Source: an uncultured Chloroflexia bacterium
GTDB lineage: Bacteria; Chloroflexota; Limnocylindria; Limnocylindrales; CSP1-4
Assembly (NCBI GenBank): GCA_963713975.1
Contig: OY970218.1
Span: 2,800,189 to 2,864,188, forward strand
Reading direction: 5' to 3'
DNA: 64,000 nt
Of the stretch, positions 11,761-62,308 are shown piece after piece (the stretch's first letter is position 1; each line of letters opens with the position of its first letter). The position numbers and the translations under genes were made by a program. Under the pieces are notes generated by a model, which was not told where the DNA came from, ran no database searches, and saw only the letters and a program-made list of their open reading frames with translations.

Positions 11761-11773
11761 CGGGTCGATCGCG

Positions 11774-29418: not shown

Positions 29419-29421
29419 GCC

Positions 29422-33949: not shown

Positions 33950-34734
33950 GCGGCGCCGGCGAGACGGTCTCGGCGGCACTTGCCCGCCTCTACGACCTGG
34001 ACCTGTCCGAGGACCCGGGGGACCTGGACCTCCTCCTGGCGCTGGCCGCCCGGTCCGGCGGGCCGGTGCTGGAGCTGGCCGTGGGGTCCGGTCGGCTGGC
34101 GGTGCCACTGGCGGCGGCCGGCCACGAGGTCACCGGCGTGGACCTGGACCAGTCGATGCTGGCCAGGGCCGCCGGGCGGGCCGATGCCGCCGGGCCCGAA
34201 GTCGCACGACGGCTGCGGCTGGTCCACGGCGACGCGCGCACCATCCGCCTGAACGACGCGGGTGCGTACGGGCTCGCCTGCATCCCGCTCAACTCGATCT
34301 TCCTGATGGGGACCCGCGCGGACCAGGCCGCGGCCGTGGCCACCCTGGCGGCGCACCTCGCGCCCGGCGGCATCGCGCTCGTCGATGCCTGGCTGCCCGA
34401 CGCGGAGGACCTGGCCCGGTACGACGGCCGCCTGGTGCTGGAGTGGGTGCGCGGTGACCCGGACAGCGGCAGGACGGTGACCAAGTCCTGCAGCGCGCTG
34501 TACGACGCGACGACCGCGTCGGTCGCTCTCACGACGCTGTTCGAGGAAGGCGACCCCGGCCAGCCACCGGTCCGGTGGGTGCGGGTGGACCGCCTCCGGC
34601 TCGTGGGCCCGGACGAGCTCGCGGCCTTCGCCGAGGCGGCCGGCCTGTCGGTCGAGACCCTGGCGGGCGACTACGAGCTGGGTGGCCTGGAGGCCGGTGC
34701 GGACCGGGTCGTGATGGTCGCGCGAAAGGCCTGA
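33946..34734 (+). CDS. Class I SAM-dependent methyltransferase
   Basis: Motif I VLELAVGSGRLAVPLA and post-I acidic residue. Overlaps the agmatinase stop. Confidence 0.65.
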   Translation: MSGAGETVSAALARLYDLDLSEDPGDLDLLLALAARSGGPVLELAVGSGRLAVPLAAAGHEVTGVDLDQSMLARAAGRADAAGPEVARRLRLVHGDARTIRLNDAGAYGLACIPLNSIFLMGTRADQAAAVATLAAHLAPGGIALVDAWLPDAEDLARYDGRLVLEWVRGDPDSGRTVTKSCSALYDATTASVALTTLFEEGDPGQPPVRWVRVDRLRLVGPDELAAFAEAAGLSVETLAGDYELGGLEAGADRVVMVARKA

Positions 34735-34826
34735 CCCCGGGACCCGCCAGGACCCCCTCGTCTGCGCGGCATTGGGACCATCGGCACGTGGGTTCACCGG
34801 GGGTGCTGCGTGGTAGAGTCGGCCCG

Positions 34827-35963
34827 ATGGCTGACCAGATCCGCCTCCTCGTCGTCGAGGACGTCCCCCAGGTTGCCCAGTACATCCGCGGGCTGCTCAA
34901 CTCGCAGTCCACGATCAAGCTGCTGGACGTCGTCAGCGACGGCAACCAGGTGCTGGGCCTGATTTCGGAGCTGCGGCCCGACGTCGTGCTCGTGGACGCG
35001 CTCCTCCAGGGCCGCGTGAAGGGCATGTCCGTCGTGGACAAGATCCACCAGTCCGGCCAGCCCGTCCCCGTGATCGTGCTCACCGTTCCCCAGAAGCCCA
35101 TCGTTGCTGACCCCGCGAGCGGCGTGCACGGCGTGCTGGCAATGCCGTTCACGGGCTATGAGCTGGTCACGCGCCTCCAGCAGGTCAACCAGGCGTCACA
35201 GGCGACGGAGGGCGGTCACCTGGCGCGGATGATCACGATCTTCGCCCCCAAGGGCGGGGTGGGCAAGACGACCCTGGCCTTCAACCTCGCCGTCGCCATC
35301 GGCCAGGCGGGCGCGCGGACGGTGCTCATCGACGGCAGCCTGCAGTTCGGCGACATGCGGGCCCTGCTCAAGGTGCCGCTCGAGGCCCCCTCGCTGCTGG
35401 ACCTGCCCACGGACCGCATCGCGGAGTCGGATCTCGCCGATGTCCTGTGGCGGGACCCGTCCGGGATCGACATCCTGCTGGCACCGCCGCGGGTCGAGAT
35501 GGCCGAGATGGTCACCGTCCGGGACGTCGAGAAGACCCTGTCCCTGCTGCGTCGCGTCTACGAGGTCGTCATCGTCGACACGCCGGCGGTGGTCAGTGAC
35601 ACCAACCTCGCGTTCCTCGACGCCTCGGACACGATCCTCGAGATCGTCACCTACGACTCCACGGCCATCCACAGCACGATGGTGATGGCCGACGCGTTCC
35701 GCATGATCGGCTACGCCCCGACCAAGGTCCACTACCTGGTCAACCGCGCGGACTCCACCGGAGGGCTGGACCCCGAGGTCCTGTCCCGCGCCCTCGGGCG
35801 TGTCCCGGAGCACCGGGTGAGCTCCGGCGGCGCCCTGGTGGTCCGGGCCAACAACGAGGGCATCCCGTTCGTGCTGGCGGACCCCAGCGCGGAGATCAGC
35901 CAGGACATCGTCCGGACGGCAGCGGAGCTCGTGCGCCGGCCCGCCCCGGTGGCGGCGCGGTAG
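34827..35963 (+). CDS. Response-regulator receiver domain fused to ParA/MinD-type P-loop ATPase (CpaE/TadZ-like architecture), orphan
   Basis: N-terminal REC fold (IRLLVVEDV...VVLVDALL). C-terminal deviant Walker A (ITIFAPKGGVGKTTLAFNLA) and MinD/ParA motifs. Confidence 0.65.
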   Translation: MADQIRLLVVEDVPQVAQYIRGLLNSQSTIKLLDVVSDGNQVLGLISELRPDVVLVDALLQGRVKGMSVVDKIHQSGQPVPVIVLTVPQKPIVADPASGVHGVLAMPFTGYELVTRLQQVNQASQATEGGHLARMITIFAPKGGVGKTTLAFNLAVAIGQAGARTVLIDGSLQFGDMRALLKVPLEAPSLLDLPTDRIAESDLADVLWRDPSGIDILLAPPRVEMAEMVTVRDVEKTLSLLRRVYEVVIVDTPAVVSDTNLAFLDASDTILEIVTYDSTAIHSTMVMADAFRMIGYAPTKVHYLVNRADSTGGLDPEVLSRALGRVPEHRVSSGGALVVRANNEGIPFVLADPSAEISQDIVRTAAELVRRPAPVAAR

Positions 35964-41785: not shown

Positions 41786-43267
41786 TCAGGTGCCCGCGGG
41801 TGCCTCGCTGCGGCGGATCCGTGCCGCGAGCCTCGCGCCACGGCGCTGTAGATCGGCCTCCAGGCGTGGATGCGCCCGGCCGGCGAGACGCAGGCGCTCG
41901 AGCAGGCGCCAGGCCGTGCGGGTCGCTGCGAGGGCGCCACCTGGGTCGTGCAGGCGGTGCTCGCGCAGCTTCGCGACCTCGATCCAGGCGATGGCCCCGA
42001 GCCCGCCGCCACCGGCCGCCGCGGTCTGCCAGGCCTCGGCGGCCTCCGCCCATCGCCCGAGGCGCTTGAGCGTGCGAGCCCGTTCTGCCGCGAGCCGCTC
42101 GTCCGTCCAGCGGTCCGACGCGGTGTCCCATGCGGCCGTGGAGGGCGAGGGCCCCATCGAGCCGCCGCGTCCACCGGCGAGCTCGCCCCGCCACCCGGAG
42201 CGTGGTGCAACACCACCGAAGTGCGGCTGGACACGCGGCGACCACCAGGCGTTCCGTTCCTCGTGGGCGGCATCGCGAGCAACCGACGGGCGCACCGGCG
42301 AGCGCCCGAAGGGGTCCCGGATGGGTGGGGTCGAGGCAAGCGCGTCGTCCAGGCACTCGAGCGCCTCGTCGTGCCGCCGCTCCCGGGCATAGGCGCGGGC
42401 CAGGCCCGCCAGGTCACCCCGGGGCGCCTCGTGGCGCGTGGTCCGGTCCGTGTACCTGTGCTCGATGTGCCCCAGCAGGAGCCCCAGCGACCGGACGTCC
42501 TTCTCGTTGTGGATGACGACGCCCGCGAGGGGCTCGATGGGCCCGCCGCGGAGTACGTCCAGGTAGAGGGACGGGATCTCCCAGCCCTCGACGTCACCCA
42601 CGCGTGACACGCCGAGAAGGTCCTCCTCGACGGTCCGCAGGCGGGCGTTCTCCATGCGGTGCCTGAAGACGCGGCGCACGAACGGCAGCAGGTCCAGGTG
42701 GCCGGCGTGAGCGGGCGCGGGCCGGCCGGCGAGGCGGTAGCGGGCCTCGATCAGGGGCCAGTCGAACCCACGCCCGTTGTAGGTGACCAGCCATGTGTCC
42801 GGCGTCACCCAGCGGGCGATCTCCGCGAGCATGGCCGGCTCGTCCGCATGATCCGGGAGGAGGAGCTGGGTCTGGAGGAACGAGGATCCCTCCCAGCGGC
42901 CCATGCCGACCAGGAAGGCGAGGGTGCCGGCAGCCGTGGCGAGCCCCGTGGTCTCGGTGTCCAGGCAGACGAGGGGAGCGTCGGCGGGCGGGTGGCCGGG
43001 CAGGAGGGCAAGACGCACGCGGTCGACCGGGATGTCCACGGGTGGCACGACCCGCCGGACGAGCAGCGAGCCATCATCCACGGTGACATCGGCCCCGAGG
43101 GCCGCCGCCAGTCGCGCCGCGAGCGCCGGGCTGCGGCGCCCGGCGAACGGGGCCCGCGCCGGCTCCTGGTCCGGCCCCACCGGCGCCCCGCCGGCCCGCC
43201 CGAGCGTCGCACGCAGGTTCGCGAGCCGCCGCTCGCGCGTGACCGGCCCGACGGCCTCGACGGTCAT
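41786..43267 (-). CDS. MrfB/YprB-like DEDD 3'-5' exonuclease with C-terminal TPR-like region
   Basis: RNase-H-like exonuclease motifs (LVCLDTETTGL; YNGRGFDWP). Start overlaps the upstream helicase stop. C-terminal helical repeats. Confidence 0.6.
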   Translation of the reverse strand: MTVEAVGPVTRERRLANLRATLGRAGGAPVGPDQEPARAPFAGRRSPALAARLAAALGADVTVDDGSLLVRRVVPPVDIPVDRVRLALLPGHPPADAPLVCLDTETTGLATAAGTLAFLVGMGRWEGSSFLQTQLLLPDHADEPAMLAEIARWVTPDTWLVTYNGRGFDWPLIEARYRLAGRPAPAHAGHLDLLPFVRRVFRHRMENARLRTVEEDLLGVSRVGDVEGWEIPSLYLDVLRGGPIEPLAGVVIHNEKDVRSLGLLLGHIEHRYTDRTTRHEAPRGDLAGLARAYARERRHDEALECLDDALASTPPIRDPFGRSPVRPSVARDAAHEERNAWWSPRVQPHFGGVAPRSGWRGELAGGRGGSMGPSPSTAAWDTASDRWTDERLAAERARTLKRLGRWAEAAEAWQTAAAGGGGLGAIAWIEVAKLREHRLHDPGGALAATRTAWRLLERLRLAGRAHPRLEADLQRRGARLAARIRRSEAPAGT

Positions 43268-45636
43268 GCGACCGCCTCCCGCCGCACCAGCCCGGCACCC
43301 AGCGCGGCGAGGAGGCGGAGCGCGAGCGCCTTACCGTCCACCTCCGGCTCCAGGCGCGGTCCGGTGCAGGCCGGGCAGCCGGCCTCGCAGGGACAGGCGG
43401 CGATCAGGTCCACGGCCCCTGCCACCAGCTCGTCGTGCCGGTCGAACAACCGCTCGGACAGGCCCACGCCGCCCGGCATCGCCTCGTACAGGTAGATCGT
43501 GGGTGCCTCGTGGTGCGGGGACCGGACCTGGGCGACGAGGCCCAGGTCCCGGGGATCCACCATCAGCAGGACCGCGGCCACGGCCTGGATGGCCCGCCCG
43601 GCCCCGATCAGCGCCACGTCCAGCTCGTCCCGCCTCCAGCCGGCGGCGGCCGCGTCCGCCGTGAGCCAGTAGGCCGTGGTCTGCAGCTCGATCTCCGGCA
43701 GGTCGATGGGACCCCAGCCCACGTTCTCGTCCGTGACGAACTTGAGCTTCTTGTAGAGGGTCACGAGACTCGCGACCATGACCTCGCCGTGGACGCGCGT
43801 GCCGCCGGTTGCGGGGGCCGTCGCGAACACGTCGAGCGGCTTGAGGGTCACGGCGCGGTTGGCGTAGGTGTAGTGGTCCGCGTCGATCCGGTGGACATAG
43901 GCCTTGCGCTCGCCCCATTCGAGGCGGTCCACGTGGAACTGCGCCGACTCGTGCATGTAGATCGCGTGCTGGTGGACGAGGACCTGGGCGGAGAAGAGAT
44001 CCACCTCGCCGAGCACCCTGGGGCGGTCCGGCGTCGTGTCGATGATCACGACGTTCTCGGGGGCGGCGGAGCGCAGCGAGATCTCCGAGGCGGGGAAGTT
44101 CTCCGAGCTCCAGTACCAGCGTCCATCGTCGGCCTGCCGCACGTGGCCGCCTTCACCCAGGAAGGCGAGCAGGTCGTCCGCCGGTCCCGGCCCGAACCAC
44201 TCCCCGGGCTCGAACGGCAGCTCGAACGTTGCCGCGCGGATGTGGGCGAGCAGGACGTGGAGGTTGTCGGGGTCCAGCCGGGCTTCCTCGGGTCGCCCGC
44301 CGAGGACGAACTCCGGGTGATGGATGACGTATTGGTCCACGGGGGCCGGCGACGCGACCAGCACGGCGACGCTGACGTCGCCCCTGCGGCCGGCCCTGCC
44401 CATCTGCTGCCAAGTGGCGGCGATGGATCCCGGGTAGCCGGCAAGGACCGCCACGTCCAGCCGACCGATGTCCACGCCGAGCTCCAGTGCGTTCGTGCTG
44501 ACAACGCCCAGGACCTCGCCGTCCCGTAGCCCGCGCTCGATCGATCGTCGTTCCGTGGGCAGGTAGCCGCCCCGGTAGCCCCGGATCCGACTCCGGGGGC
44601 CAAGGTCCTGACGCAGCGTCTCGCGCAGGTTCGAGAGCATGATCTCGACCGCCACGCGGCTCTTCCCGAAGACCACGGTCTGGCGCCCGGCGCGGAGGAA
44701 CGGGATCGCCCACCGCTGGGCCAGCGTCAGGGCGGACCCGCGCGCCCCGGTGGCGCCGTCGATGATCGGGGGGTCCACCAGCAGCAGGTGCTTCTCGCCC
44801 GCCGGGGCCCCGTTGCGGTCGATGAGGCGGGCGGGCCGCCCGGTCAGCGTCTCGGCCAGCTCCGCCGGGTTCCCGATGGTGGCCGAGCAGCACACGATGA
44901 CGGGGTGCGAGCCGTAGTGCGCGCACAGCCGCAGCAGGCGCCGCAGCACGTTGGCGACGTGCGAGCCGAACACCCCGCGGTAGGTGTGGAGCTCGTCGAT
45001 GACGATCACGCGAACTTGCTCGAACAGTTGGAACCACTTGGTGTGGTGGGGGAGGATTGCCGAATGGAGCATGTCGGGGTTCGTGACGACGACCTGCCCG
45101 GCCTTGCGGATCGCCGAGCGGATGGGTGCCGGCGTGTCCCCGTCGTAGCAGGCCGAGGAGACCTGCAGCCCGGCATCCCGGACGAGTTCCCCGAACTCGG
45201 CGACCTGGTCCTGGCCCAGGGCCTTGGTGGGGAACAGGAACAGCGCTCGTGCCGAGGGGTCCTCCGCGAGCGCCTGGAGCACCGGCACGGTGTAGCAGAG
45301 CGACTTGCCGGATGCGGTCGGGGTGACCACGACGACGTCCTGCCCGTCGTGCACCGCCTCGATCGCGTCTGCCTGGTGGGTGTAAGGGCGCTCGATGCCG
45401 CGTCGTGCGAGGCCACCCCTGATTCTCGGGTCCAGCCACGCGGGCCACTCCCCATGCTCCGCGGCACGAGCCGCGCGCACCTCGTGATGGACGACGCCAC
45501 GGGCGAGTGACGGCTCCGAGAGCAGGTGCTCCAGCACGTCCCGGGTGCTGGCTGGGGCGTAGGTGCGCATCTGCCGTCTCCGGTCTGATATCGAACGGAT
45601 GATCGAATTGAACGCGAGTCTACGACAGGCTGGCAA
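43264..45636 (-). CDS. MrfA/YprA-like DExH-box helicase with C-terminal DUF1998 four-Cys domain
   Basis: Motif I TPTASGKSL, DEAH-like DELH, helicase C motifs, and the C-terminal ACPCEAGCPAC metal-binding cluster characteristic of DUF1998. Confidence 0.75.
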   Translation of the reverse strand: MPACRRLAFNSIIRSISDRRRQMRTYAPASTRDVLEHLLSEPSLARGVVHHEVRAARAAEHGEWPAWLDPRIRGGLARRGIERPYTHQADAIEAVHDGQDVVVVTPTASGKSLCYTVPVLQALAEDPSARALFLFPTKALGQDQVAEFGELVRDAGLQVSSACYDGDTPAPIRSAIRKAGQVVVTNPDMLHSAILPHHTKWFQLFEQVRVIVIDELHTYRGVFGSHVANVLRRLLRLCAHYGSHPVIVCCSATIGNPAELAETLTGRPARLIDRNGAPAGEKHLLLVDPPIIDGATGARGSALTLAQRWAIPFLRAGRQTVVFGKSRVAVEIMLSNLRETLRQDLGPRSRIRGYRGGYLPTERRSIERGLRDGEVLGVVSTNALELGVDIGRLDVAVLAGYPGSIAATWQQMGRAGRRGDVSVAVLVASPAPVDQYVIHHPEFVLGGRPEEARLDPDNLHVLLAHIRAATFELPFEPGEWFGPGPADDLLAFLGEGGHVRQADDGRWYWSSENFPASEISLRSAAPENVVIIDTTPDRPRVLGEVDLFSAQVLVHQHAIYMHESAQFHVDRLEWGERKAYVHRIDADHYTYANRAVTLKPLDVFATAPATGGTRVHGEVMVASLVTLYKKLKFVTDENVGWGPIDLPEIELQTTAYWLTADAAAAGWRRDELDVALIGAGRAIQAVAAVLLMVDPRDLGLVAQVRSPHHEAPTIYLYEAMPGGVGLSERLFDRHDELVAGAVDLIAACPCEAGCPACTGPRLEPEVDGKALALRLLAALGAGLVRREAVA

Positions 45637-47116: not shown

Positions 47117-49240
47117 GTGGATGCACTGTTCGACATCGTAGGGAGCGGGACGCTCGCGCTCCTGTTCGTCATCGTCGTCATCGTCCTGCTGGTGGCCTAC
47201 ATCACGGGCCGGTTCAAGGTCGCGGGCGCGAACGAGGCCCTCGTGCGCACCGGAGGGCTGGTGAGGGCCCCGGCCCAGCTCAAGGTGGTTCGCGCGGGTC
47301 GCGTCGTCGTGCTCCCGCTCGTCCACAAGCTGGGCAAGCTGCACCTGTCGGCCAGGCTGATCGAAGTGTCCCTGTCGGACGCGGTCACCCAGCAGGGCAT
47401 CAAGGTGGCCGTCCAGGGCGTCGCGACGGTCAAGATCGGCGGCGACGACGAGTCGATCCGCAACGCCGCAGAGCGGTTCGTGGATCGCGAGGACCAGATC
47501 GAATCGATCGTCAAGAACGTGCTCGAGGGGTCGCTGCGCTCGATCGTGGGCACGCTGACCGTCGAAGAGCTCAACTACGACCGCCAGAAGTTCCAGCAGG
47601 AGGTCCAGAGCGCGGCCAAGGGCGACCTCGCCACGTCGGGCCTGACGATCGACAACTTCACGATCCAGGCCATCCGCGACGAGGTTGGCTACATGGACCT
47701 CATCGGCCAGCAGGAGACGGCCCGTCGCGAACGGGACGCGCGGATGGCCAAGGCCACGGCCGATCAGGAGGCAGCGGTCCGGGAGGCGGAGGCCCAGCAG
47801 ATCAAGCTCAACGCCCAGCGCGACGTCTCCCTCCGCCAGGCGGAGGTCATCGCGCTCACCGCCGCCGCCGAGGCGAAGGCCGCACAGGCCGGTCCGCTGG
47901 CGGATGCCGAGGCCCAGCAGGAGGTCACCCGGCGCCAGACCGAGCTCGCCCAGCTCCAGGCGGACCGCACCCAGAAGGAGCTGATCGCCAGCACCATCCG
48001 GCCGGCGGAGGCCGAGGCGGAGGCACAGATCCGGCGCGCCGAGGGCGACAAGGGCGCCCGGATCGCGCAGGCCCAGGCGGAGGCCGAGCGCGTCAAGCTC
48101 GCCGGCCAGGCCGAGGCGTCCGTGAACGTCACCATGGGCGAGGCACAGGCCCGGGTGACCATGGTCAACGCGGAGGCGATCGCCAAGCAGACGACGCTCG
48201 AGGGCAACGCCGAGGCCGGCATCACCTTCACCAAGGGCGAGGCCGAGGCCAAGGCGCTGGCCCTCCGAGCCGATGCCTACCGGCAGTTCAACGAGGCGGC
48301 CATCATCTCGACGGTCCTCTCGATGCTGCCCGAGATCGTGCGCGCTGCCGCCGAGCCGCTCTCGCACATCGACAGCCTGACCGTCCTTTCCTCCGAGGGC
48401 GCCTCCGACGTCGTCAAGACGACGACCCGGACGCTGGCGGAGGCATCCGCGTCCGTGAAGGGCCTCACGGGCATCGACATCCCGGAGCTGCTGAACAGCG
48501 CCCTGGGCAGCAACGCACCCGCCAAGGGCCCGGTCGTCGTCAAGGCGAAGCGCCAGTCCAACGAGGACGAGGGGTCCGGCGGCGGCGGTACCTCCGGCAC
48601 CGGCGGCACCCCGCCCCCATCGGGCTCCGGTCCGGCACCGGCAGCTCCCGAAGGCGGTGAGTCCGCGAGCGCCAGTCCGCCCGTTGGCGTCGAGCCCCCC
48701 GCGAGCGTCGAGCCACCCAATTCGCCTGCGGGCCAGACCCCGTCCGTCGTCAAGCCGACGCCGGCCGTCAAGCCGACGCCGGCCGTCAAGCCGACGCCGG
48801 CCGTCAAGCCGACGCCGGCCGAGCGCTTCGAAGCGGCGTCCAGGGCGATGGAGGCATCGCTGTCGCGGGCCACGGCTCCGCCCGCGTCGGCCCTCGGCGG
48901 GCTCACGTCGCCCATGCCCCCCCTGCCTCCGGTGAGCGACATGAGACCGGGCGACAAGCGGAAGGCCGCGATGGCCGCGGCCGGGGCGATCGGGATCAGC
49001 GAGTCGACCACGCTCAGCGAGTCCGCCCAGCGGCTGGCCGAGGAGCTGATCCGGGTCCCCGGGATCGAACGGTTCGGCAGCACGCGGCTGCGTGACCTGG
49101 ATCGCGGTGGGCCGAGGTCGCTGCGGAACCTGTGGGGCGCTACCCGCGACGAGCTCTCGACCCGCTATGGGGACGTCACGATCGGGATGCTGCTCGACGC
49201 CTACGGTCGGGAGCACGGCCAGGGCGGACCGCCCCAGTAG
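47117..49240 (+). CDS. Flotillin-family SPFH/band-7 protein with long Ala/Glu coiled coil and Pro-rich repeat tail
   Basis: N-terminal TM, SPFH domain, extended AEAEAQ... coiled coil. AGGAGG RBS before the GTG start. Confidence 0.8.
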   Translation: MDALFDIVGSGTLALLFVIVVIVLLVAYITGRFKVAGANEALVRTGGLVRAPAQLKVVRAGRVVVLPLVHKLGKLHLSARLIEVSLSDAVTQQGIKVAVQGVATVKIGGDDESIRNAAERFVDREDQIESIVKNVLEGSLRSIVGTLTVEELNYDRQKFQQEVQSAAKGDLATSGLTIDNFTIQAIRDEVGYMDLIGQQETARRERDARMAKATADQEAAVREAEAQQIKLNAQRDVSLRQAEVIALTAAAEAKAAQAGPLADAEAQQEVTRRQTELAQLQADRTQKELIASTIRPAEAEAEAQIRRAEGDKGARIAQAQAEAERVKLAGQAEASVNVTMGEAQARVTMVNAEAIAKQTTLEGNAEAGITFTKGEAEAKALALRADAYRQFNEAAIISTVLSMLPEIVRAAAEPLSHIDSLTVLSSEGASDVVKTTTRTLAEASASVKGLTGIDIPELLNSALGSNAPAKGPVVVKAKRQSNEDEGSGGGGTSGTGGTPPPSGSGPAPAAPEGGESASASPPVGVEPPASVEPPNSPAGQTPSVVKPTPAVKPTPAVKPTPAVKPTPAERFEAASRAMEASLSRATAPPASALGGLTSPMPPLPPVSDMRPGDKRKAAMAAAGAIGISESTTLSESAQRLAEELIRVPGIERFGSTRLRDLDRGGPRSLRNLWGATRDELSTRYGDVTIGMLLDAYGREHGQGGPPQ
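48749..48820. repeat. 4 x 18-bp tandem repeat (gtcaagccgacgccggcc, encodes VKPTPA) inside the flotillin tail
   Basis: Perfect head-to-tail copies. Confidence 0.8.
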
Positions 49241-50307: not shown

Positions 50308-50382
50308 GGCAGGGTAGCTCAGTGGCAGAGCAAGCGGCTCATAATCGCTAGGTCGCTGGTTCGAATCCAGCCCCTGCTACCA
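50308..50382 (+). tRNA. tRNA with CAT anticodon (tRNA-Met; tRNA-Ile2/lysidine type cannot be excluded)
   Basis: Hand-folded cloverleaf: acceptor ggcaggg/ccctgct (G1-U72), D arm gctc-agtggca-gagc, anticodon arm agcgg-ctCATaa-tcgct, variable aggtc, T arm gctgg-ttcgaat-ccagc, discriminator A, encoded CCA. Confidence 0.85.
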
Positions 50383-50430: not shown

Positions 50431-50620
50431 GTCGCCGATACGTGGTGAAACCTGAACCTCGCCTTACGGCCACGCGGCCCATCCATCGGCGATGCTGGCC
50501 CGTACAGGCAATGGTGATCGGGGCCGCGGCCGGCGTTGCCGGGCCGGGATGACCCCGACGGTATACTCCCTCGGACGCCGGCGTCCCCCGTCGGCACTGT
50601 CGGACTCGGAGGCGCTCCGT

Positions 50621-52555
50621 TTGAACGCAAAGTTCCTGCGCAACGGGATCGTGATGCTCGTCCTCGTGGCGGGGACGGTCGTGCTGCTCTACACGTGGGT
50701 CCAGTCGTCCGCCCCCCAGCCGCAGAAGGGGTACTCGGAGTTCTACGACGCCGTCAAGGCCGGCACCGTCTCCAAGGCCGTCCAGGATGGTGAGACGCTC
50801 GAGGTGACACCGAAGACCGGCGGCACGTACACAGTGGTGGTGCCGAACTCGATCACCGGTGACGTCTACTCCGACATGCAGAAGGCGTCGGCGGCCGGCG
50901 GCCAGTCAACGGTGCCGGAGTACTCGAAGAAGCCCACGGCCGACACGTCGTGGATCGGCCTGCTCCTGACGGGCCTGCTGCCCCTGATCGTGATCGGCGG
51001 CTTCATCTTCTTCATGATGCGCCAGGCCCAGGGCACCAACAACCAGGCGATGTCCTTCGGCAAGAGCCGGGCCCGCATGTTCCTCGGCAACAAGACGGTG
51101 GTGACCTTCGCCGACGTCGCCGGTGTGGACGAGGCCAAGATGGAGCTCCAGGAGGTGGTGGAGTTCCTCAAGTACCCCGAGAAGTTCAACTCGCTTGGCG
51201 CGCGCATCCCGCGCGGCGTGCTCCTGGTGGGCCCTCCCGGGACGGGCAAGACGCTGATGGCGCGGGCCGTGGCCGGCGAGGCCGGCGTGCCGTTCTTCAG
51301 CATCTCCGGCTCGGAGTTCGTCGAGATGTTCGTGGGCGTCGGTGCCAGCCGCGTACGTGACCTGTTCGACCAGGCCAAGCGCAACAGCCCGTGCATCGTG
51401 TTCGTGGACGAGATCGACGCGGTCGGCCGCCAGCGTGGCGCCGGGCTCGGCGGGTCCCATGACGAGCGGGAGCAGACCCTCAACCAGATCCTGGTCGAGA
51501 TGGATGGCTTCGACACCGCCACCAACGTGATCGTCGTCGCGGCCACCAACCGCCCTGACGTCCTGGACCCGGCCCTGCTGCGGCCCGGACGCTTCGACCG
51601 CCAGGTCATCCTGGACCGGCCGGACATGAAGGGTCGCACGGCGATCCTCAAGGTCCACACCAAGGGCAAGCCGCTCGACAAGACCGTGGTGGTGGAGGAG
51701 GTCGCGCGCCAGTCGCCCGGCTTCTCCGGTGCCGACCTTGCGAACCTGGTCAACGAGGCCGCGATCCTGGCCGCCCGGCGCAACAAGAAGGTCGTCGGCA
51801 TGAGCGAGTTCTCCGAGGCCCTCGAGCGCATCGTTGCCGGCCCGGAGCGCAAGAGCCGGGTCATCAGCGACGACGAGAAGCGGATCATCGCCTTCCATGA
51901 GGGCGGTCACGCCGTCGTGCAGCGGATCCTCCCGAAGTGCGACCCGGTCGCGAAGGTCACGGTCATCAGCCGCGGCATGGCCCTCGGCTACACGATGGCC
52001 CTGCCCACCGAGGACCGCTACCTCCAGAGCAAGACGGAGTTCGAGGACAAGATCGCGGGCCTCCTCGGCGGCAACGTCGCGGAGCGGCTCGTGTTCGGCG
52101 ACACGACGACAGGTGCGAGCAACGACATCGAGAAGGCAACCGATCTCGCGCGCCGTATGGTGACCGAGTTCGGCATGAGCGACCGCCTCGGGCCACTGTC
52201 GTTCGGCAAGCGTGACGAGATGGTCTTCCTGGGCCGGTCCATGGGCGAGCAGCGCGACTACTCCGACAACGTCGCGATGATGATCGACGAGGAGGTCAGG
52301 GCGATCATCGACCGGGCCTACGTGCGCGCCACCGAGGTCCTCACCCAGCATCGGGACCGCCTCGACCGGCTGGCTGAGAAGCTCATCGCCGAGGAGACCG
52401 TGGACGCCTCGGAGTTCGAGAAGCTGTTCGACGACCTGCCGCCCAAGGAAGGGCGCTTCGCGGGGATCCCGCACATCGTCGCCCCGGGCACGGAGGGCGG
52501 GACATCGATCGGGCCCGGCACTCCAGCACCCAACCCTTCGCCGCAGCCGGCCTGA
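50621..52555 (+). CDS. ftsH: ATP-dependent zinc metalloprotease FtsH
   Basis: TTG start (GGAGG RBS 9 nt upstream) giving an FtsH-type N-terminus. AAA+ [17 protein letters not shown] zinc site. The six-frame ORF extends 43 codons further upstream without support. Confidence 0.9.
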
Positions 52556-52695: not shown

Positions 52696-54117
52696 ATGAC
52701 AGACCCGCATGCCGCCCCCGGCGCGACCCCCATCGACATGGCCGTCGAGGCCGCGCTCGAGGCATCGCGCGATGCCCGCACCGAGGCGCTCCTCGAGTTC
52801 GCCCGGATCCCGAGCGTGTCGGCGCTGCCGGAGCACGCCGGCGACATGGTACGGGCGGCCGAGTGGGTTGCGGAGCGGCTCCGGGGGGTCGGCGCGACGG
52901 ATGTCGAGGTGTCGCCGACGGAGCTCCACCCGATCGTCTACGGGCGGATCCACGAGGCCCCTGGTGGCCCGACTGCGCTCGTGTACTGCCACTACGACGT
53001 GCAGCCTGTCGACCCCATCGACCTGTGGGATACGGCCCCGTGGGAACCCTTCGTCAAGGACGGACGGTTCGTGGGCCGGGGCGTGGCTGACGACAAGGGC
53101 CAGCTGGTCATGCACCTGTCGGCGCTCGAGGCCCTGCGATCGGTCGGGAAGGCGCCGGCGGTCAACCTCACCTTCGTGTTCGAGGGCGAGGAGGAGTACG
53201 GGTCGGCCAGCCTCTACACCTGGATCGAGGCCAACCGCGACCGGCTGTCCGCGGACGTCGCGATCATCAGCGATACCGGCTACTTCGAGGGCAACCTGCC
53301 CGCGATCACCGTCGGCCTGCGCGGGATCATGTATGCGCAGATCGATGTGGAACTGTCACCGGTCGACCTGCATTCGGGCATGTACGGGGGCACGGTGGCG
53401 AACCCCGCCAACGCTTTGGCCGGGATCATCGCAGCGCTCAAGGGCCCGGACGGGCGGGTCCGCATCCCGAGGTTCTACGACGATGTCGTTGCCCTCACCG
53501 ACGACGAGCGTGCGGCGATGGCCGCCCTGCCGTTCGACGAGGAGGAGTACCGCGCCGACATCCCCGTCCCGCAGCTCGTGGGCGAGGCGGGCTGGACCAC
53601 GCTCGAGCGCAAGGGAGCGCGACCCACCCTGGACGTGAACGGCATGTGGAGCGGGTTCCAGGGCGAGGGGGCCAAGACGATCATCCCGGCCCATGCCCAC
53701 GCCAAGGTCTCGACCCGCCTTGTCGCCGACCAGGACCCCGCCAGGGTGTACGCGGCGTTCGCGGAGTTCGTGGCGGAGATCGCGCCGCCGGGCGTGACGG
53801 TCAGCACCTCGTACATCCACGGCGGCGAGCCGTCACTGACCCCCATGGATCACACTGCGACCAGGGCCGCGGCGCGGGCCCTCGAGGCGGTTCACGGGAG
53901 GAAGCCCGTCTACATCCGCGAGGGCGGCTCGATCCCGGTGACGGCCGCGTTCGACCACACCCTGGGCCTGCCGGTCGTGCTGCTCGGCTTCACGCAGCCC
54001 GCGTGCAACGCGCACGCGCCGAACGAGTACCTGCTGGTCGAGAACTTCGAGCTGGGGACCCGCGTGATCGTGCGCTTCTGGGACGAGCTCGCAAGTACCT
54101 TCGGCGGATCCAGGTAG
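52696..54117 (+). CDS. M20/M25/M40-family dipeptidase (PepV/ArgE/DapE-like)
   Basis: YCHYDVQP, GRGVADDKGQ, EGEEEYGS metal ligands. Confidence 0.75.
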   Translation: MTDPHAAPGATPIDMAVEAALEASRDARTEALLEFARIPSVSALPEHAGDMVRAAEWVAERLRGVGATDVEVSPTELHPIVYGRIHEAPGGPTALVYCHYDVQPVDPIDLWDTAPWEPFVKDGRFVGRGVADDKGQLVMHLSALEALRSVGKAPAVNLTFVFEGEEEYGSASLYTWIEANRDRLSADVAIISDTGYFEGNLPAITVGLRGIMYAQIDVELSPVDLHSGMYGGTVANPANALAGIIAALKGPDGRVRIPRFYDDVVALTDDERAAMAALPFDEEEYRADIPVPQLVGEAGWTTLERKGARPTLDVNGMWSGFQGEGAKTIIPAHAHAKVSTRLVADQDPARVYAAFAEFVAEIAPPGVTVSTSYIHGGEPSLTPMDHTATRAAARALEAVHGRKPVYIREGGSIPVTAAFDHTLGLPVVLLGFTQPACNAHAPNEYLLVENFELGTRVIVRFWDELASTFGGSR

Positions 54118-54195
54118 TCCCGGGGGGTAGCGGCGCGCTGCAAACCCGGTGCTAGGATGCACCCACGGCTATCGATCGCGGGAGGACCGGCGCAC

Positions 54196-55272
54196 GTGAC
54201 AACCGAGACGGGGGCGGGGGCGACACAGCAGGCGTCCTGGCGTTTTGAAGGACCGAACGGGAGCATGGCGCCCCGATCGGCCATCGAGGTGCTGGTCGAT
54301 CTCAACGAGAAGGTTGCGGGCGGCAAGGTGGGGGAGTACCAGCCGGTGCCGCTGGGCTTCACGCCGCTCGACAAGACCATCGGGACCGGCCTCCGCGCGG
54401 GCGAGCTCCTGCTCATCGGCGGGGCGCAGGGAACCGGCAAGACGACGATGGCGCTGCAGATGGCGCGCAACGTCGCGTCCGGCGGCCAGGCGAACGTGCT
54501 GTACATCTGCTTCGAGCACGACGAGCTGTACCTGTTGAACCGGCTGATTGCCGCCGAGTCCGCGCTCGCCCACCTGCCCCACAAGACCGGTGCGATCAAG
54601 ATCCAGGACGTCCGCAAAGAGATCCTGGGCACCTGGATGGCCGAGGGCGGCGGTGTCGCCCAGCTGGCCGCCAACCCGCGCCTGCGGCCGTCGCTGGACC
54701 GGATCGCCCGCTACGGCCAGAACCTGTTCCTGCTCCGCGGCTCACAGACCGCGAGCACGATCGACGGGATGCGCCAGCTCATCCGGCAGCATCGCGAACT
54801 GTCCGGAGACCGTCGCCTGGTCGTGGTCGTGGACTATCTCCAGAAGGTGCCGGTCATCCCCGAGCCCGTGAGCGAGTCGGAGAAGGTGACCTTCGTCGTC
54901 AACGGCCTCAAGGACATCGCCCTGTCCGAGGACGTGCCGATGATCGCGATCGTCGCGGCGGACAAGGAGGGCCTCAAGGCCTCGCGCCTCCGCAACTACC
55001 ACCTGCGCGGGTCGTCGGCGATCAACTACGAGGCCGACATCATCCTGATCCTGAACGAGAAGTACCAGATCGTTGCCAAGGTCAACATCGAGTTCAACCC
55101 GTACCAGGCGCAGCGCTTCCGGGACTGGGTGATCGTCTCGGTGGAGAAGAACCGCGGCGGCCAGGACGCGGTGGACCTGGAGTTCGAGAAGCACTTCGAG
55201 TTCTCCTGCTTTGACCCCAACGGGCGGACGGTGCAGGAGAAGCTGATCGAGGAGCGCCTCTACAACGACTGA
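54196..55272 (+). CDS. Stand-alone DnaB-C-terminal-like RecA-fold ATPase (no DnaB N-terminal domain)
   Basis: GFTPLDKTIGTGLRAGELLLIGGAQGTGKTT Walker A, VVVVDYLQ Walker B. DnaB H4-like LKDIALSEDVPMIAIVAA...NYHLRGSSAINYEADIILIL. GTG 54196 with a GGAGGA RBS; alternatives 54157 or 54265. Confidence 0.55.
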   Translation: MTTETGAGATQQASWRFEGPNGSMAPRSAIEVLVDLNEKVAGGKVGEYQPVPLGFTPLDKTIGTGLRAGELLLIGGAQGTGKTTMALQMARNVASGGQANVLYICFEHDELYLLNRLIAAESALAHLPHKTGAIKIQDVRKEILGTWMAEGGGVAQLAANPRLRPSLDRIARYGQNLFLLRGSQTASTIDGMRQLIRQHRELSGDRRLVVVVDYLQKVPVIPEPVSESEKVTFVVNGLKDIALSEDVPMIAIVAADKEGLKASRLRNYHLRGSSAINYEADIILILNEKYQIVAKVNIEFNPYQAQRFRDWVIVSVEKNRGGQDAVDLEFEKHFEFSCFDPNGRTVQEKLIEERLYND

Positions 55273-55591: not shown

Positions 55592-56110
55592 ATGACCAAC
55601 CCCAATGCCGACCGCTTCCCGGGCGTCGTCGAGATCGTCGTTGAGATCCCGCGGGGAAGCCGCAACAAGTACGAGTTCGACGAGGTAGCCGGTGTCTACC
55701 GACTGGACCGGGTCCTGTCGTCGGCCGTGTTCTACAACTTCGACTACGGCTTCATCGAGGGGACGCGGGCCGATGACGGCGATCACACGGACGCCCTCCT
55801 GATCATCGACGAGCCGACCTTCACGGGCTGCCACGTCTGGGCGCGTCCGATCGGCGGGCTGGAGATGCGCGACGAGAAGGGCTTCGACTTCAAGACGCTG
55901 TGCGTCGCCGTGCACGACCCTCACCAGCAGCACATCGAGCGCCTCGAGCAGATGCGCCCGCACCGGCTCGTCGAGATCGAGCACTTCTTCAACACCTACA
56001 AGCTGCTCGAGGAGAAGGACGTCGATGTGGTGGGCTGGCGGGATCGGGATCGCGCGCTCGAGGTGCTGACGGCGGATCGCGTGCGCTACCGGCGCGAAGT
56101 TGGTGGCTGA
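55592..56110 (+). CDS. ppa: Inorganic pyrophosphatase (family I)
   Basis: VVEIPRGSRNKYE and DGDHTDAL motifs. Confidence 0.9.
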   Translation: MTNPNADRFPGVVEIVVEIPRGSRNKYEFDEVAGVYRLDRVLSSAVFYNFDYGFIEGTRADDGDHTDALLIIDEPTFTGCHVWARPIGGLEMRDEKGFDFKTLCVAVHDPHQQHIERLEQMRPHRLVEIEHFFNTYKLLEEKDVDVVGWRDRDRALEVLTADRVRYRREVGG

Positions 56111-56690
56111 GCGCCCGGACCGACTGTTCGTCGCGGTGCCGCTGCCACCGGCGCCGCTGGCGGCCTGCAAGGCGCTGATCGAGGGCGTTCGCGCCGGACC
56201 GCTCGGTGACGTGCCCCGTTGGGTCCACGTCGACAACCTCCACCTGACGGTGCGCTTCCTGGGCGAGACACCGCCCGAGCTCACTCCGGATGCCGCGCTG
56301 GCCGTCCAGGACGCGATCACGGGTGCGCGGGCGTTCGAGGTCGTCCTCGCCGGGGCCGGCGCTTTTCCGGAGGCGCGCAAGCCGCGCGCGCTGTGGCTGG
56401 GCATTGAACGAGGCGCCGGGGAGCTGGGCGCACTCATGGATGCGCTGGACCCCGCGCTGGAGCCCCTCGGCTGGCCGCGCGATGACCGCCCGTACCGCCC
56501 GCACCTGACGGTCGCGCGCCTGGATCGCTCGTCCATCGCCTCGTCCGGCGCAGTCGCCGACGAACTGCGGACGGCCGCCGCCGACTGGAGGACGTCCTTC
56601 CGGGCGGACCGTGTGGTCCTCTACCGCAGCCACCTCGGGGGCGGACCGCCCCGCTACGAGCCGCTGGTCGAGGTGGCGCTGGAGCCCTGA
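56100..56690 (+). CDS. thpR: RNA 2',3'-cyclic phosphodiesterase (2H phosphoesterase, ThpR/LigT)
   Basis: Two H-x-T-x motifs (HLTVRFLG, HLTVARL). Confidence 0.75.
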   Translation: MVAERPDRLFVAVPLPPAPLAACKALIEGVRAGPLGDVPRWVHVDNLHLTVRFLGETPPELTPDAALAVQDAITGARAFEVVLAGAGAFPEARKPRALWLGIERGAGELGALMDALDPALEPLGWPRDDRPYRPHLTVARLDRSSIASSGAVADELRTAAADWRTSFRADRVVLYRSHLGGGPPRYEPLVEVALEP

Positions 56691-58172: not shown

Positions 58173-58439
58173 GTGCCCAAGCTCGCGTGTCGCGCATGCG
58201 GCCGGGAGGTCTACACGGCGGCGTCGCTGGATTCGCTGTTCGCCGAGGAGCGTCGGTGCCCACGTTGTGGCGCGCTCCTGGACCCGGAACGTCGACTCAC
58301 GGACCGCCGCCAGCACGTGCGACGAGTCAACCCGCCGGACGCGCCGGGCCCGCCCGATGAGACCGGTGAACGCCGCATTGGCGAGCGGCGCCGGGGCCGA
58401 CGACGATCCGGTGAGACGGGTACGTGGCCGGGCCGCTGA
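58173..58439 (+). CDS. Small Arg-rich zinc-ribbon protein
   Basis: CRACG...CPRCG. 88 aa. Speculative coding call. Confidence 0.3.
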   Translation: MPKLACRACGREVYTAASLDSLFAEERRCPRCGALLDPERRLTDRRQHVRRVNPPDAPGPPDETGERRIGERRRGRRRSGETGTWPGR

Positions 58440-59990: not shown

Positions 59991-61385
59991 GTGCCCATGG
60001 CTGATCGAACGCGCGCCGTCCGTCACCGGGTCGCCCACGCCGTCCTGCTGCTGGGCGTCCTGCTGCTGGGCGTGACCGGCGTGGCGCAGGCCACCGGGGC
60101 GGAGGCGGTCGTCCTCACCGCGAACGGGGTCGTGGACGACGCGCTCGCGGGCTATCTCGAGGAGGGCGTTGCCACTGCCGCCGCGGATGGTGCCGCCGCG
60201 GTGGTCGTGGAGCTGGACACGCCCGGCGGCAGTCTTGACGCCACCAGCCGGATCCGCAAGGCATTCCTGGCATCGACGGTGCCGGTGATCGTGTGGATCG
60301 CGCCGTCCGGCGCCCGCGCCGCCAGCGCCGGCACGTTCATCACGCTGGCCGGGAACCTCGCCTACATGGCGCCCGGCACCAACATCGGCGCCGCGACGCC
60401 CGTCAGCAGCACCGGCGAGGACATCCCCGGCACCATGGGCGAGAAGGTCCTCAACGACTCGATCGCGGCCATCTCCGCCACGGCCGAGGCGCGCGGACGG
60501 CCCGTTGACTGGGCGGTGTCCACCGTTGCGGAGGCCCGCTCGTACACGGCGAGCGAGGCCGTTGCCGCGGGCGCCGTGGACGGCATCGCGGAGACGTTGG
60601 ACCAGGTGCTGGCGGCCGCCGATGGTGAGACGGTGACCGTGGCCGGTGGCACCCCCGTCACCCTGGATCTCGCGGGGGCCACGGTGGTCGAGACCCCGAT
60701 GGGTCCCGTCCTGGGCTTCCTGCACCTCCTGTCCGATCCGAACATCGCGTTCCTCCTGTTCGTCGTGGGCGTGCTGGGCCTCGCGACCGAGCTGATCAAC
60801 CCGAACCTCGTCACCGGGTTGCTGGGTGCCCTCGCACTGCTCCTGGCGTTCGTGGGGTTCGGGAGCCTGCCGCTCAACGTGGCCGGGGTGCTGCTCGTCG
60901 CATTCGGCTTCATCCTGTTCGTCCTCGAGACCCAGATCGTGAGCCACGGCCTGTTGATGCTGGGCGGGATCGTGTGCCTCGCGCTGGGTGCGGCGGCCCT
61001 GTACACGGCGCCGATGACCCCGACCGGCCCGCTCGTCGCGGTGGCGCCGCCCGTCATCGCGGCCGTCACGGTGACGATCGGCGGGCTCATGGCGCTGATC
61101 GCGGTCGCGGCCGTCCGCACGCGGCGGATGGGGACGACGACCGGTACCGTGGGCTCCGTGGTCCCAACCGGGACCGAGGGCGTCGTCCGGGCTCCGCTGG
61201 CGCCGGGCGGCACCGTGTACCTCGCCGGCGAGACCTGGAGCGCCCGCACCCCGGACGAGCGGAGCCTGCCCCGCGACACACCCGTCCGATTGATCGCCTT
61301 CGACGGCCTCACCGCCCTCGTGGAACCCGTCGACGCCCAGCCCGATCCATCCCGGCCGACCCCGTTGATCGCCGACCGTCCCTAG
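59991..61385 (+). CDS. NfeD-family protein, long form (ClpP-class serine protease domain + TM + OB-fold)
   Basis: N-terminal ClpP-like fold (VELDTPGGSLDATSRI...SAGTFITLAG), central TM bundle, C-terminal OB domain. Confidence 0.7.
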   Translation: MPMADRTRAVRHRVAHAVLLLGVLLLGVTGVAQATGAEAVVLTANGVVDDALAGYLEEGVATAAADGAAAVVVELDTPGGSLDATSRIRKAFLASTVPVIVWIAPSGARAASAGTFITLAGNLAYMAPGTNIGAATPVSSTGEDIPGTMGEKVLNDSIAAISATAEARGRPVDWAVSTVAEARSYTASEAVAAGAVDGIAETLDQVLAAADGETVTVAGGTPVTLDLAGATVVETPMGPVLGFLHLLSDPNIAFLLFVVGVLGLATELINPNLVTGLLGALALLLAFVGFGSLPLNVAGVLLVAFGFILFVLETQIVSHGLLMLGGIVCLALGAAALYTAPMTPTGPLVAVAPPVIAAVTVTIGGLMALIAVAAVRTRRMGTTTGTVGSVVPTGTEGVVRAPLAPGGTVYLAGETWSARTPDERSLPRDTPVRLIAFDGLTALVEPVDAQPDPSRPTPLIADRP

Positions 61386-61399
61386 CCCCGGAGGACCCC

Positions 61400-62308
61400 A
61401 TGGAGCTCGTCATCGCCCTCGTCACGCTCGCGGTCATCGCCGGGATCCTGCTGATGATCCTGTACCTGTCGGTGCGGGTCGTGCAGCAGTACGAGCGGAT
61501 GGTCGTCTTCCGCCTGGGCAAGACCAACGAGAAGATGGTGCGCGAGCCGGGCCTCAGGTTCCTGGTCCCCGTCGTGGACCGGCCAGTGAAGGTGGACATG
61601 CGCGAGCAGTTCATCGAGGTCCCGAGCCAGACGACCATCACCAAGGACAACGCCCCGATCAACGTCGACTTCCTGATCTACTGGCGCATTGCGGACGCGC
61701 TCAAGAGCGTGGTCAACGTGGCCAACTTCCCGGGCGCCCTCCAGGGCGTGGCGACCACGACGCTGCGTGCCGTCATCGGCGACATCCTGCTCGACGACGT
61801 CCTGTCCAAGCGCGAGCAGATCAACGAGGTCCTGCGGACGAAGCTGGACGAGGTCACCGAGCGCTGGGGCGGCAAGATCACGACCGTCGAGATCCGCGAG
61901 ATCACGCCGCCCCGCGACGTACAGGACGCGATGAACCGGCAGCTGTCCGCGGAGCGGACGCGGCGCGCCGTGATCACCGAGTCCGAGGGTGCCCGGCAGT
62001 CCGCGATCAACGTCGCCGAGGGCCAGAAGCAGTCGGAGATCCTGAAGGCCGAGGGCGAGCGCCAGGCGGCCATCCTCCGGGCCGAGGGGTTCAGCCAGGC
62101 GCTCGAGCGGATCTACGCCGCCGCCCACCAAATCGACGAGAAGACGATGGCCCTGCAGTACCTCGACGCGCTCAAGCAGTTGGGGACAAGCCCGTCGACC
62201 AAGTTCGTCATCCCGACCGAGTTCACCCGCCTGGCCGACCAGATCGGCGGATACGTTGACCGCGGCATGACGGCACGACCTGACCAGGAGAACGGGGACG
62301 CCCGCTGA
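61400..62308 (+). CDS. SPFH/band-7 stomatin-like protein
   Basis: N-terminal TM plus SPFH core (YERMVVFRLGK...TKDNAPINVDFLIYWRI). GGAGG RBS. Confidence 0.8.
   Translation: MELVIALVTLAVIAGILLMILYLSVRVVQQYERMVVFRLGKTNEKMVREPGLRFLVPVVDRPVKVDMREQFIEVPSQTTITKDNAPINVDFLIYWRIADALKSVVNVANFPGALQGVATTTLRAVIGDILLDDVLSKREQINEVLRTKLDEVTERWGGKITTVEIREITPPRDVQDAMNRQLSAERTRRAVITESEGARQSAINVAEGQKQSEILKAEGERQAAILRAEGFSQALERIYAAAHQIDEKTMALQYLDALKQLGTSPSTKFVIPTEFTRLADQIGGYVDRGMTARPDQENGDAR

Follow-up and report, generated by a model that had tools for sequence, protein, structure and literature searches.

Motors of the DnaB type have so far been known from two kinds of protein, the replicative helicases, in which the C-terminal motor (PF03796) is preceded by an N-terminal collar domain (PF00772), and RadA/Sms, in which it is joined to an N-terminal zinc finger (C4) and a C-terminal Lon-like domain. 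Forms of helicase superfamily 4 (SF4) that consist of the helicase domain only have also been described, namely the T7 gp4 helicase domain, the G40P ATPase domain, the H. pylori DnaB C-terminal domain and RSF1010 RepA, some of which come from phages or plasmids while others are fragments made in the laboratory. Here we describe a third form of the motor, natural and collar-less, which is encoded in a 64,000-nucleotide stretch of DNA (the window; contig OY970218.1, positions 2,800,189 to 2,864,188) from an uncultured member of the Limnocylindrales in the phylum Chloroflexota. Unlike the domain-only SF4 proteins, it is the product of a core gene on the chromosome that is inherited vertically and, within a single bacterial class, is under stronger constraint than FtsH. 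We refer to the gene, located at 54196..55272 on the forward strand, as X.

X encodes 358 amino acids (aa) and has the layout of a stand-alone DnaB-type ATPase, in which a linker helix leads into the C-terminal motor domain. The Pfam family DnaB_C (PF03796) matches the protein with E 8.2e-25 over residues 64-347, in the numbering of a 371-aa open reading frame (ORF), and the DnaB N-domain PF00772 is absent at E<=1. The stretch before the linker helix is only ~27 residues long, the chain ends at residue 358, and neither Pfam nor the structure model reveals additional domains. The initial annotation had described a protein of ~360 aa at exactly these coordinates, with DnaB C-terminal ATPase motifs and no helicase N-domain. 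Each of these statements was borne out, and all the motif strings that it quoted are present; LKDIALSEDVPMIAIVAA corresponds to residues 238-255 of X and RGSSAINYEADIILIL to residues 271-286.

The motifs of the motor can be followed along the chain, all of them on the forward strand. A short N-terminal beta-hairpin, WRFEGPNGS (residues 16-24, 54241..54267; DSSP strands 17-19 and 22-24 in the model), is present in the window clade and, as judged by eye, also in the relatives P0122, P0129, P0130 and P0155. The linker helix (residues 28-43, 54277..54324; helix 29-41 in the model) aligns with positions ~159-175 of G40P/DnaB and is taken in by Foldseek alignments of ~320 columns; in DnaB, the inter-domain linker docks onto the adjacent subunit. 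The Walker A or H1 motif, GGAQGTGKTT (residues 75-84, 54418..54447, with K82 and T83), is 97-100% conserved in every clade. Alignment to 2r6a places H1a at CFEHD (residues 105-109, 54508..54522), where E107 occupies the position of the catalytic Glu in the SLEM motif of DnaB and H108 is specific to the family. Walker B or H2, VVVVDYLQKVP (residues 209-219, 54820..54852, with D213), was located by the alignment and the clade table. The H3 region, IAIVAADKEG (residues 250-259, 54943..54972), was delimited by alignment to Bst DnaB; according to the clade table, which includes E. coli DnaB, the sensor Gln of DnaB is replaced by Ala254 throughout the X family and D256 is conserved. In the H4 loop and the strand that follows it, HLRGSSAINYEADIILIL (residues 269-286, 55000..55053), R271 aligns with the Arg of DnaB LRESG, a residue that contacts DNA in DnaB. 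R271 is found in 100% of the members of the window clade, of a sister clade ~70% identical to X and of a clade that carries an N-domain (see below), and in 73-97% of those of the others. The segment VEKNRGG (residues 316-322, 55141..55161; clade table) is invariant in alignment A1 of the family, and two of its residues, K318 and R320, take the alignment positions of the DnaB Lys/Arg finger (KQRNG), the RadA counterpart of which is KNRFG; this finger acts in trans in both DnaB and RadA. Finally, the C-terminal extension, FDPNGRTVQEKLIEERLYND (residues 339-358, 55210..55269), is family-specific, with P341, G343 and L350 near-invariant across the X family.

Overall, Walker A, E107, Walker B, HLRGSS and EKNRGG show 97-100% conservation within the window clade, and across the family they are mostly kept. 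The departures from DnaB that run through the family are Ala254 for the H3 Gln, His108 after the catalytic Glu and the C-terminal extension FDPxG...L, to which the window clade adds the N-terminal hairpin as a fourth. The predicted structure of X has confidence values (pLDDT) of 94-98 up to about residue 350. The closest solved relatives by sequence are DnaB C-domains (E ~1e-11), and comparison figures against solved proteins place DnaB first (29.8), followed by T4 gp41 (27.5), RadA (24.7), Twinkle (24.0), T7 gp4 (23.1), KaiC (22.4), FlaH (18.5) and RSF1010 RepA (17.1). X is structurally nearer DnaB than RadA, and the ranking of DnaB above KaiC and FlaH marks it as a DnaB-type motor and not a KaiC/FlaH-type ATPase. 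Since the linker helix and the trans-acting fingers are kept, an oligomeric ring is implied by reference to the established structure of DnaB. We regard the fold, the family membership and the nature of X as an oligomeric ATPase as highly probable.

X shares with DnaB the C-terminal RecA-fold, the H1-H4 motifs (with the H3 Gln changed to Ala) and the Arg finger. Unlike DnaB, it has no collar, is only ~20% identical in sequence, carries EH for EM in H1a, has the family-specific C-terminal extension and the N-terminal hairpin, and does not lie in a replication context; its score against the DnaB equivalog TIGR00665 was 76.7 bits versus a cut-off of 385.25, and other DnaB equivalogs were also far below their cut-offs. 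Unlike RadA/Sms, it lacks both the N-terminal zinc finger and the C-terminal Lon-like domain, and TIGR00416 gave 28.9 bits versus a cut-off of 403, over residues 66-120 only. KaiC is likewise a RecA-fold ring ATPase, and the KaiC/ATPase family PF06745 matches X with 32.8 bits over residues 66-140; this match is confined to ~75 residues of the Walker A region, X has a single domain where KaiC has a tandem, and NF006799 gave 24.9 bits versus a cut-off of 408. For ArlH/FlaH the score was 17.6 bits versus a cut-off of 215, and X does not have the ~230-aa KaiC-like form of that family. A placement like that of ArlH/FlaH, which lies in type IV filament operons beside a VirB11-type ATPase and platform genes, was seen only among relatives less than 60% identical to X. 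X therefore belongs to no curated NCBIfam family. The suggestion in the initial annotation that such proteins may belong to RadA- or KaiC-like families thus fails on these scores, and no full-length match to DnaB, RadA, KaiC, ArlH or any other characterised family emerged.

The reading frame of X ends at 55272 and offers two candidate starts, ATG 54157 and GTG 54196. The GTG is preceded by a Shine-Dalgarno sequence, GGGAGGA (54180..54186, forward strand), lying 9 nucleotides (nt) before it; an equivalent GTG preceded by GGGAGGA at the same spacing was found in all 15 related loci inspected, and in several of these in-frame stops occur close 5' of the GTG. The shared Shine-Dalgarno sequence supports GTG 54196 as the true start and the upstream stops rule out ATG 54157, so that the start first proposed is upheld. 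The G+C content of the window is ~71%, and that of X is in line with its host. A third-codon-position G+C content (GC3) of 0.93 and a median dN/dS of 0.127 in comparisons with 83 orthologs mark X as a genuine gene rather than a chance ORF.

When 1.84 billion cluster representatives were searched exhaustively, 229 clusters (50% identity) were retrieved at E<1e-30. Most of their representatives are collar-less proteins of 320-370 aa that are 33-50% identical to X, and the few that are named carry the labels Chloroflexota or Acidimicrobiia. Alignment A1 comprises 31 members of 30-71% identity, a diversity too great for its use as a profile in scans of loci; its invariant residues are G54, D59, G65, G81, Q88, R116, D213, K239, A242, D281, K289, K318 and R320. 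X aligns full-length to the family and has its signatures CYEHD, VDYLQKVP, HLRGSSAxxYEAD, EKNRxG and the C-terminal FDPxG...L. Two relatives, P0135 (491 aa) and P0138 (519 aa), carry PF00772 in front of a motor domain that is 48-49% identical to that of X. Grouped with them are ~37 clusters (90% identity) of 457-586 aa from unclassified '[bacterium]' metagenome-assembled genomes (MAGs), and members of this N-domain clade include P0284-P0318 and loci L084, L173 and L175. The three N-domain loci that were inspected lie in ordinary chromosomal context with no Tad linkage. Because this clade carries PF00772, the X-type motor can be seen as a DnaB derivative that exists with and without a collar. 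The family is a cellular descendant of DnaB, undescribed and uncharacterised. N-terminal extensions of P0009, P0012 and P0121 are low in complexity and look like mis-called starts. Residues 1-110 of P0130 form an extension of ~100 aa with two repeats resembling helices of the MshEN/T2SSE_N type; the only Pfam match there, to DUF4388, is below threshold, and assignment to MshEN/T2SSE_N was rejected.

Close orthologs of X define a core gene. A collection in which each species is represented by a single genome contains 557 stretches that encode a relative, and the best 80 of these, on which the ortholog figures are based, all belong to Limnocylindrales or Chloroflexota MAGs, encode proteins 82-97% identical to X and contain one X per genome. 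Likewise, the 120 best database clusters are 84-94% identical to X, 355-375 aa long and generically annotated, their MAG labels being Chloroflexota or Ca. Limnocylindrales; a look-up for a sequence identical to X returned no record. The gene order ftsH-M20-X-ppa-ligT is conserved across Limnocylindrales loci, and in the sister clade (~70% identity) ftsH lies immediately upstream and ligT downstream of the X homolog. In the window these neighbours, all on the forward strand, are ftsH (50492..52555), an M20 peptidase (52696..54117), whose gene is separated from the start of the X match by 121-443 bp in 83 related loci, ppa for inorganic pyrophosphatase (55592..56110), which follows X at a distance of 26-3621 bp, and a LigT-like 2'-5' RNA ligase or phosphoesterase (56100..56690). 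At the N-terminus the ftsH ORF as listed (687 aa) exceeds its orthologs by ~40-50 aa, for which reason its true start is probably later. X is thus a single-copy core gene in these soil Chloroflexota (Limnocylindria), syntenic in at least 80 Limnocylindrales species. The initial annotation was right to place a chromosomal copy in a core region between housekeeping neighbours, M20 and ppa. Its description of the gene as an orphan oddity does not hold: X does stand alone and without a collar, but it is a core gene in at least 80 Limnocylindrales species and belongs to a family of 229 clusters.

Comparison of the genes of the neighbourhood with those of the window (medians over 83 loci) revealed the strength of this conservation. 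The median aa identity of X was 88.7% at the dN/dS given above, as compared with 82.5% and 0.195 for a TrpB-like protein (TrpB2), 81.7% and 0.189 for ppa, 80.5% and 0.239 for FtsH, and 62.5% and 0.414 for M20; median identities of prephenate dehydrogenase and LigT were 52.9% and 47.6%. X is the most constrained gene of its neighbourhood. The product name given by JGI/IMG to collar-less proteins of the family (P0004, P0007, P0018 and others) is 'replicative DNA helicase'. Counts of dnaB taken from product names would consequently include X, and genome surveys of Chloroflexota may be misled.

The genomic surroundings of more distant relatives are of another kind. Loci were binned by identity to X and scanned for Tad/Flp pilus genes, which were found in none of 91 loci at >=80% identity (1.38 Mb of flank), in none of 23 loci at 60-80% (87 kb) and in 40 of 63 loci below 60% (534 kb). 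In this last bin, 41 loci come with 3 kb of flank or more, and Tad/Flp genes were found in 29 of them; 4 of the 12 Tad-free loci encoded N-domain forms. In the 114 loci of X's own clades (~1.46 Mb of flank) there was no CpaF, TadB, TadC or Flp, none of these was found in the window, and no Flp-like small ORF was found in the window between X and ppa. The Tad-linked relatives are 33-52% identical to X and are located downstream of tadC, upstream of the prepilin peptidase, or immediately downstream of cpaF. Tad-embedded members were seen in L085 (8001-9005), L176 (10001-11074), L177 (10001-11068), L120 (~1420-2474) and many of L092-L154. On contigs labelled Acidimicrobiia the X relative begins 2 nt past tadC and closes the series Flp-TadE-RcpC-CpaE-CpaF-TadB-TadC. 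A clade with ~50% identity, which includes a member labelled Thermomicrobiaceae, has it in complete Tad operons, with a VWA-TadC fusion on one side and the prepilin peptidase on the other. The order around P0419 and P0424 is RcpC-CpaE-CpaF-TadB-VWA/TadC-X relative-Peptidase_A24, that in L120 is TadC, an ICMT-like gene, the X relative and the prepilin peptidase, and in P0130 (48% identity) a Flp pilin gene follows (L172, 3012-3188). At other Tad-linked loci cpaF is immediately upstream of the X relative. The platform protein TadC is fused to an N-terminal von Willebrand A (VWA) domain in two of these operons (L176 7987-9954 and L177 8090-9946; VWA + T2SSF, 618-655 aa).

A phage-like neighbourhood was seen only once in the family. 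In L088 (9256-17077), genes resembling those for portal and major capsid proteins lie after P0279, a relative with ~39% identity to X.

The window also holds an orphan gene for a REC + ParA/MinD-like (CpaE/TadZ-like) protein at 34575-35963 (forward strand), ~18 kb upstream of X and with no other Tad gene nearby. A homologous gene is found 5-9 kb downstream of X in 45 of 83 related loci, and a second CpaE query gave 54 matches for it, the window itself among them. The change of position from upstream of X in the window to downstream in these 45 loci indicates that the region was rearranged. The gene was considered as a sign of pilus linkage and rejected as such, there being no Tad operon near X in the window clade.

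A neighbor-joining tree groups the window clade with the N-domain clade and the clade that contains the Thermomicrobiaceae-labelled member, and places other Tad-linked lineages outside this grouping, on long branches. Its root is unreliable, given one distant outgroup and uneven rates. Both an exit of the window clade from a Tad operon and a free-standing state older than recruitment into the operon fit the data; the hairpin, which by eye is common to the window clade and the Flp-adjacent P0130, favours the exit by one point.

Full-text literature searches retrieved no account of chromosomal DnaB paralogs that lack the collar, and none of Tad loci that contain a DnaB-like ATPase. The X family and the Tad linkage of its relatives are new. 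Tad pili derive from archaeal systems. Secondary ATPases of the FlaH/KaiC type are frequently encoded in type IV filament loci of archaea, the secondary ATPase of Epd pili is FlaH, and Tad shares the gene organisation of Epd (PMC4858521, PMC6668835). A survey of archaella and Tad in Chloroflexota, in which Tad was encoded by only about one-third of genomes, makes no mention of a DnaB-like ATPase (PMC12488501). In pooled KEGG Orthology (KO) lists for CSP1-4 (Limnocylindria), cpaB, cpaE and cpaF appear in both the freshwater and the sediment lists, and tadB and tadC in the freshwater list but not among the sediment entries listed (PMC13212565).

What X does can be approached from these patterns. 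We tentatively favour the reading that it is a DnaB-type ring motor with a housekeeping function, which would work on DNA elsewhere than at the replication fork and, in the manner of RadA, serve recombination, repair or the handling of incoming DNA. A housekeeping function is suggested by its location outside pilus operons, fixed by ftsH, M20 and ppa, where it is the most constrained gene. A DNA substrate is suggested because the helicase elements are kept except for the H3 Gln, the H4 Arg included, because the nearest structural relatives are all DNA helicases, because a related clade retains the helicase collar, and because the constraint on X is unusually strong outside a pilus context. Subunits of X would form a ring via the linker helix and would hydrolyse ATP at their interfaces with K82/T83, E107 and D213, K318/R320 being supplied in trans, and the conserved H4 loop (R271-G-S-S) would drive a strand through the central channel. 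Ring assembly, trans-acting fingers and DNA substrate are here putative, derived from the correspondence of residues with DnaB and RadA. Several points weigh against a DNA motor. No DNA-processing gene consistently adjoins X or its Tad-linked relatives, and the embedding of relatives in pilus operons points more naturally to a component of the pilus machine. The H3 Gln of DnaB couples ATP sensing to DNA binding, and this residue is Ala254 across the X family. The oligomeric state, DNA binding and helicase activity of X are predictions from sequence, and the direction of evolution is not fixed by a neighbor-joining tree with a single distant outgroup. The pooled freshwater CSP1-4 KO list is without K04485 (radA/sms), but it is also without K02313 (dnaA) (PMC13212565), and since the list is incomplete the missing radA is a weak lead to the role of X.

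The pilus linkage suggests two things, either a new accessory motor of monoderm Tad pili that parallels ArlH/FlaH, or a pilus-coupled DNA motor. Extended to X, the former would make it an accessory cytoplasmic ATPase that serves the Tad machine in trans, a RecA-fold ring that binds and modulates CpaF/TadA as ArlH/FlaH does ArlI, and only in its position would the gene have left the operon. We consider this main rival possible, though on the unlikely side. The nearest non-orthologous relatives (48-52% identity; L120, P0419, P0424 and P0130) are pilus-linked and more distant members sit 2 nt after tadC or directly after cpaF; in addition, Tad genes are present in the pooled CSP1-4 lists (PMC13212565) and archaeal type IV filament loci commonly hold FlaH/KaiC-type ATPases (PMC4858521, PMC6668835). 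Set against this are the absence of CpaF, TadB, TadC and Flp from all 114 own-clade loci, the slower evolution of X than of FtsH when Tad-linked members lie on long branches, and the encoding of Tad in ~1/3 of Chloroflexota genomes (PMC12488501) when X is in every top-ranked Limnocylindrales genome. At the level of the family, X and its relatives could be a DnaB-derived motor part of monoderm Tad pili that has gone unrecognised, a bacterial counterpart of ArlH. More radical is the proposal that X is the replicative helicase of Limnocylindria, a ring without a primase-binding collar in a lineage with no canonical DnaB. If this proposal were true, primase recruitment and the helicase loader would differ in Limnocylindria. 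It would account for a single-copy gene with the constraint typical of an essential one, for intact DnaB motor motifs, for the housekeeping contexts of the N-domain clade and for the JGI label. No canonical dnaB was found in the window or the related loci searched, where tblastn with E. coli DnaB retrieved only X, but these represent a single neighbourhood, so that the result is uninformative either way. The freshwater CSP1-4 list contains K02314, K02315 and K02316, and as such lists come from BlastKOALA, K02314 is ambiguous and could be X itself (PMC13212565). The close relatives of X belong to pilus operons, and the MAGs that carry them are labelled Thermomicrobiaceae and Acidimicrobiia. Cultured members of these lineages carry canonical dnaB, which disfavours the replicative role, and we know of no bacterial precedent for displacing DnaB and losing the DnaG-binding collar, which also counts against it. 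We therefore hold this proposal to be very improbable.

Only a little less doubtful is a KaiC-like signalling ATPase or autokinase without translocation, which would act as a nucleotide-state switch on, for example, FtsH. The PF06745 match, the loss of the H3 sensor Gln and the linkage of FtsH and X that the window clade shares with the 70% clade could be so explained. However, the KaiC match is limited to the Walker A region, the DnaB-specific linker helix, H4 Arg and KxR finger are retained, no KaiB- or KaiA-like partner is nearby, and the linkage to FtsH may be inherited gene order. The initial annotation had expected truncated DnaB-like ATPases of this kind to be phage- or plasmid-borne, and X could accordingly be a relic of a mobile element (phage or plasmid) or of a defence island, in the form of a truncated phage DnaB. 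Some matches point that way: PHROG gave generic DnaB-like hits (phrog_19, E 2.4e-33), PADLOC gave mad8 only, a weak hit (E 1.4e-07), and P0279 lies beside portal and capsid genes. But the same chromosomal position in at least 80 species and the strong purifying selection speak against a relic, as does host-like G+C content. The best relatives in IMG/VR are only 22-29% identical to X. In PLSDB, P0419 had no match at E<=1e-20 and P0280 a single generic DnaB_C match of 26% identity, and the family is thus absent from both databases, contrary to that expectation. No integrase or mobile-element gene flanks X, the rest of the window being housekeeping. The data on conservation and synteny effectively refute a mobile relic. 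The housekeeping DNA motor remains the reading that we tentatively prefer.

Other genes of the window deserve brief mention. No promoter-like or terminator-like sites were found, and Rfam returned a single RNA, a tRNA-Met (CAT) at 50308-50382 (forward strand), just 5' of ftsH. Further upstream, on the reverse strand, an MrfA-like helicase (DEAD, Helicase_C, WHD_HRQ1, MZB) followed by an RNase_H_2/TPR protein (41786-45636) is reminiscent of the mitomycin-repair pair MrfAB; L001 and L002 also have a homolog of the helicase upstream of ftsH, and in L001 the RNase_H_2 partner can be seen as well. An AddA-like UvrD-type helicase + PD-(D/E)XK nuclease (1067 aa) is followed directly by an N6/N4 DNA methyltransferase (26215-30327, forward strand). 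Also on the forward strand are an FHA-RodA/FtsW-PBP cell-wall cluster (6737-10238), a MoxR AAA+/DUF58/transglutaminase-like trio (10777-15258) and two SPFH systems. One of these is a flotillin-like protein of 707 aa (47117-49240), and the other pairs an NfeD protease-like membrane protein with an SPFH/Band 7 protein encoded after it (59991-62308), the second gene of which probably starts later, given that the listed ORFs overlap. Between the genes for the TrpB-like PLP enzyme and prephenate dehydrogenase, a zinc-ribbon protein of 88 aa is encoded at 58173-58439 (forward strand), and at the position of this gene L001 has an unannotated ORF of 95 aa.

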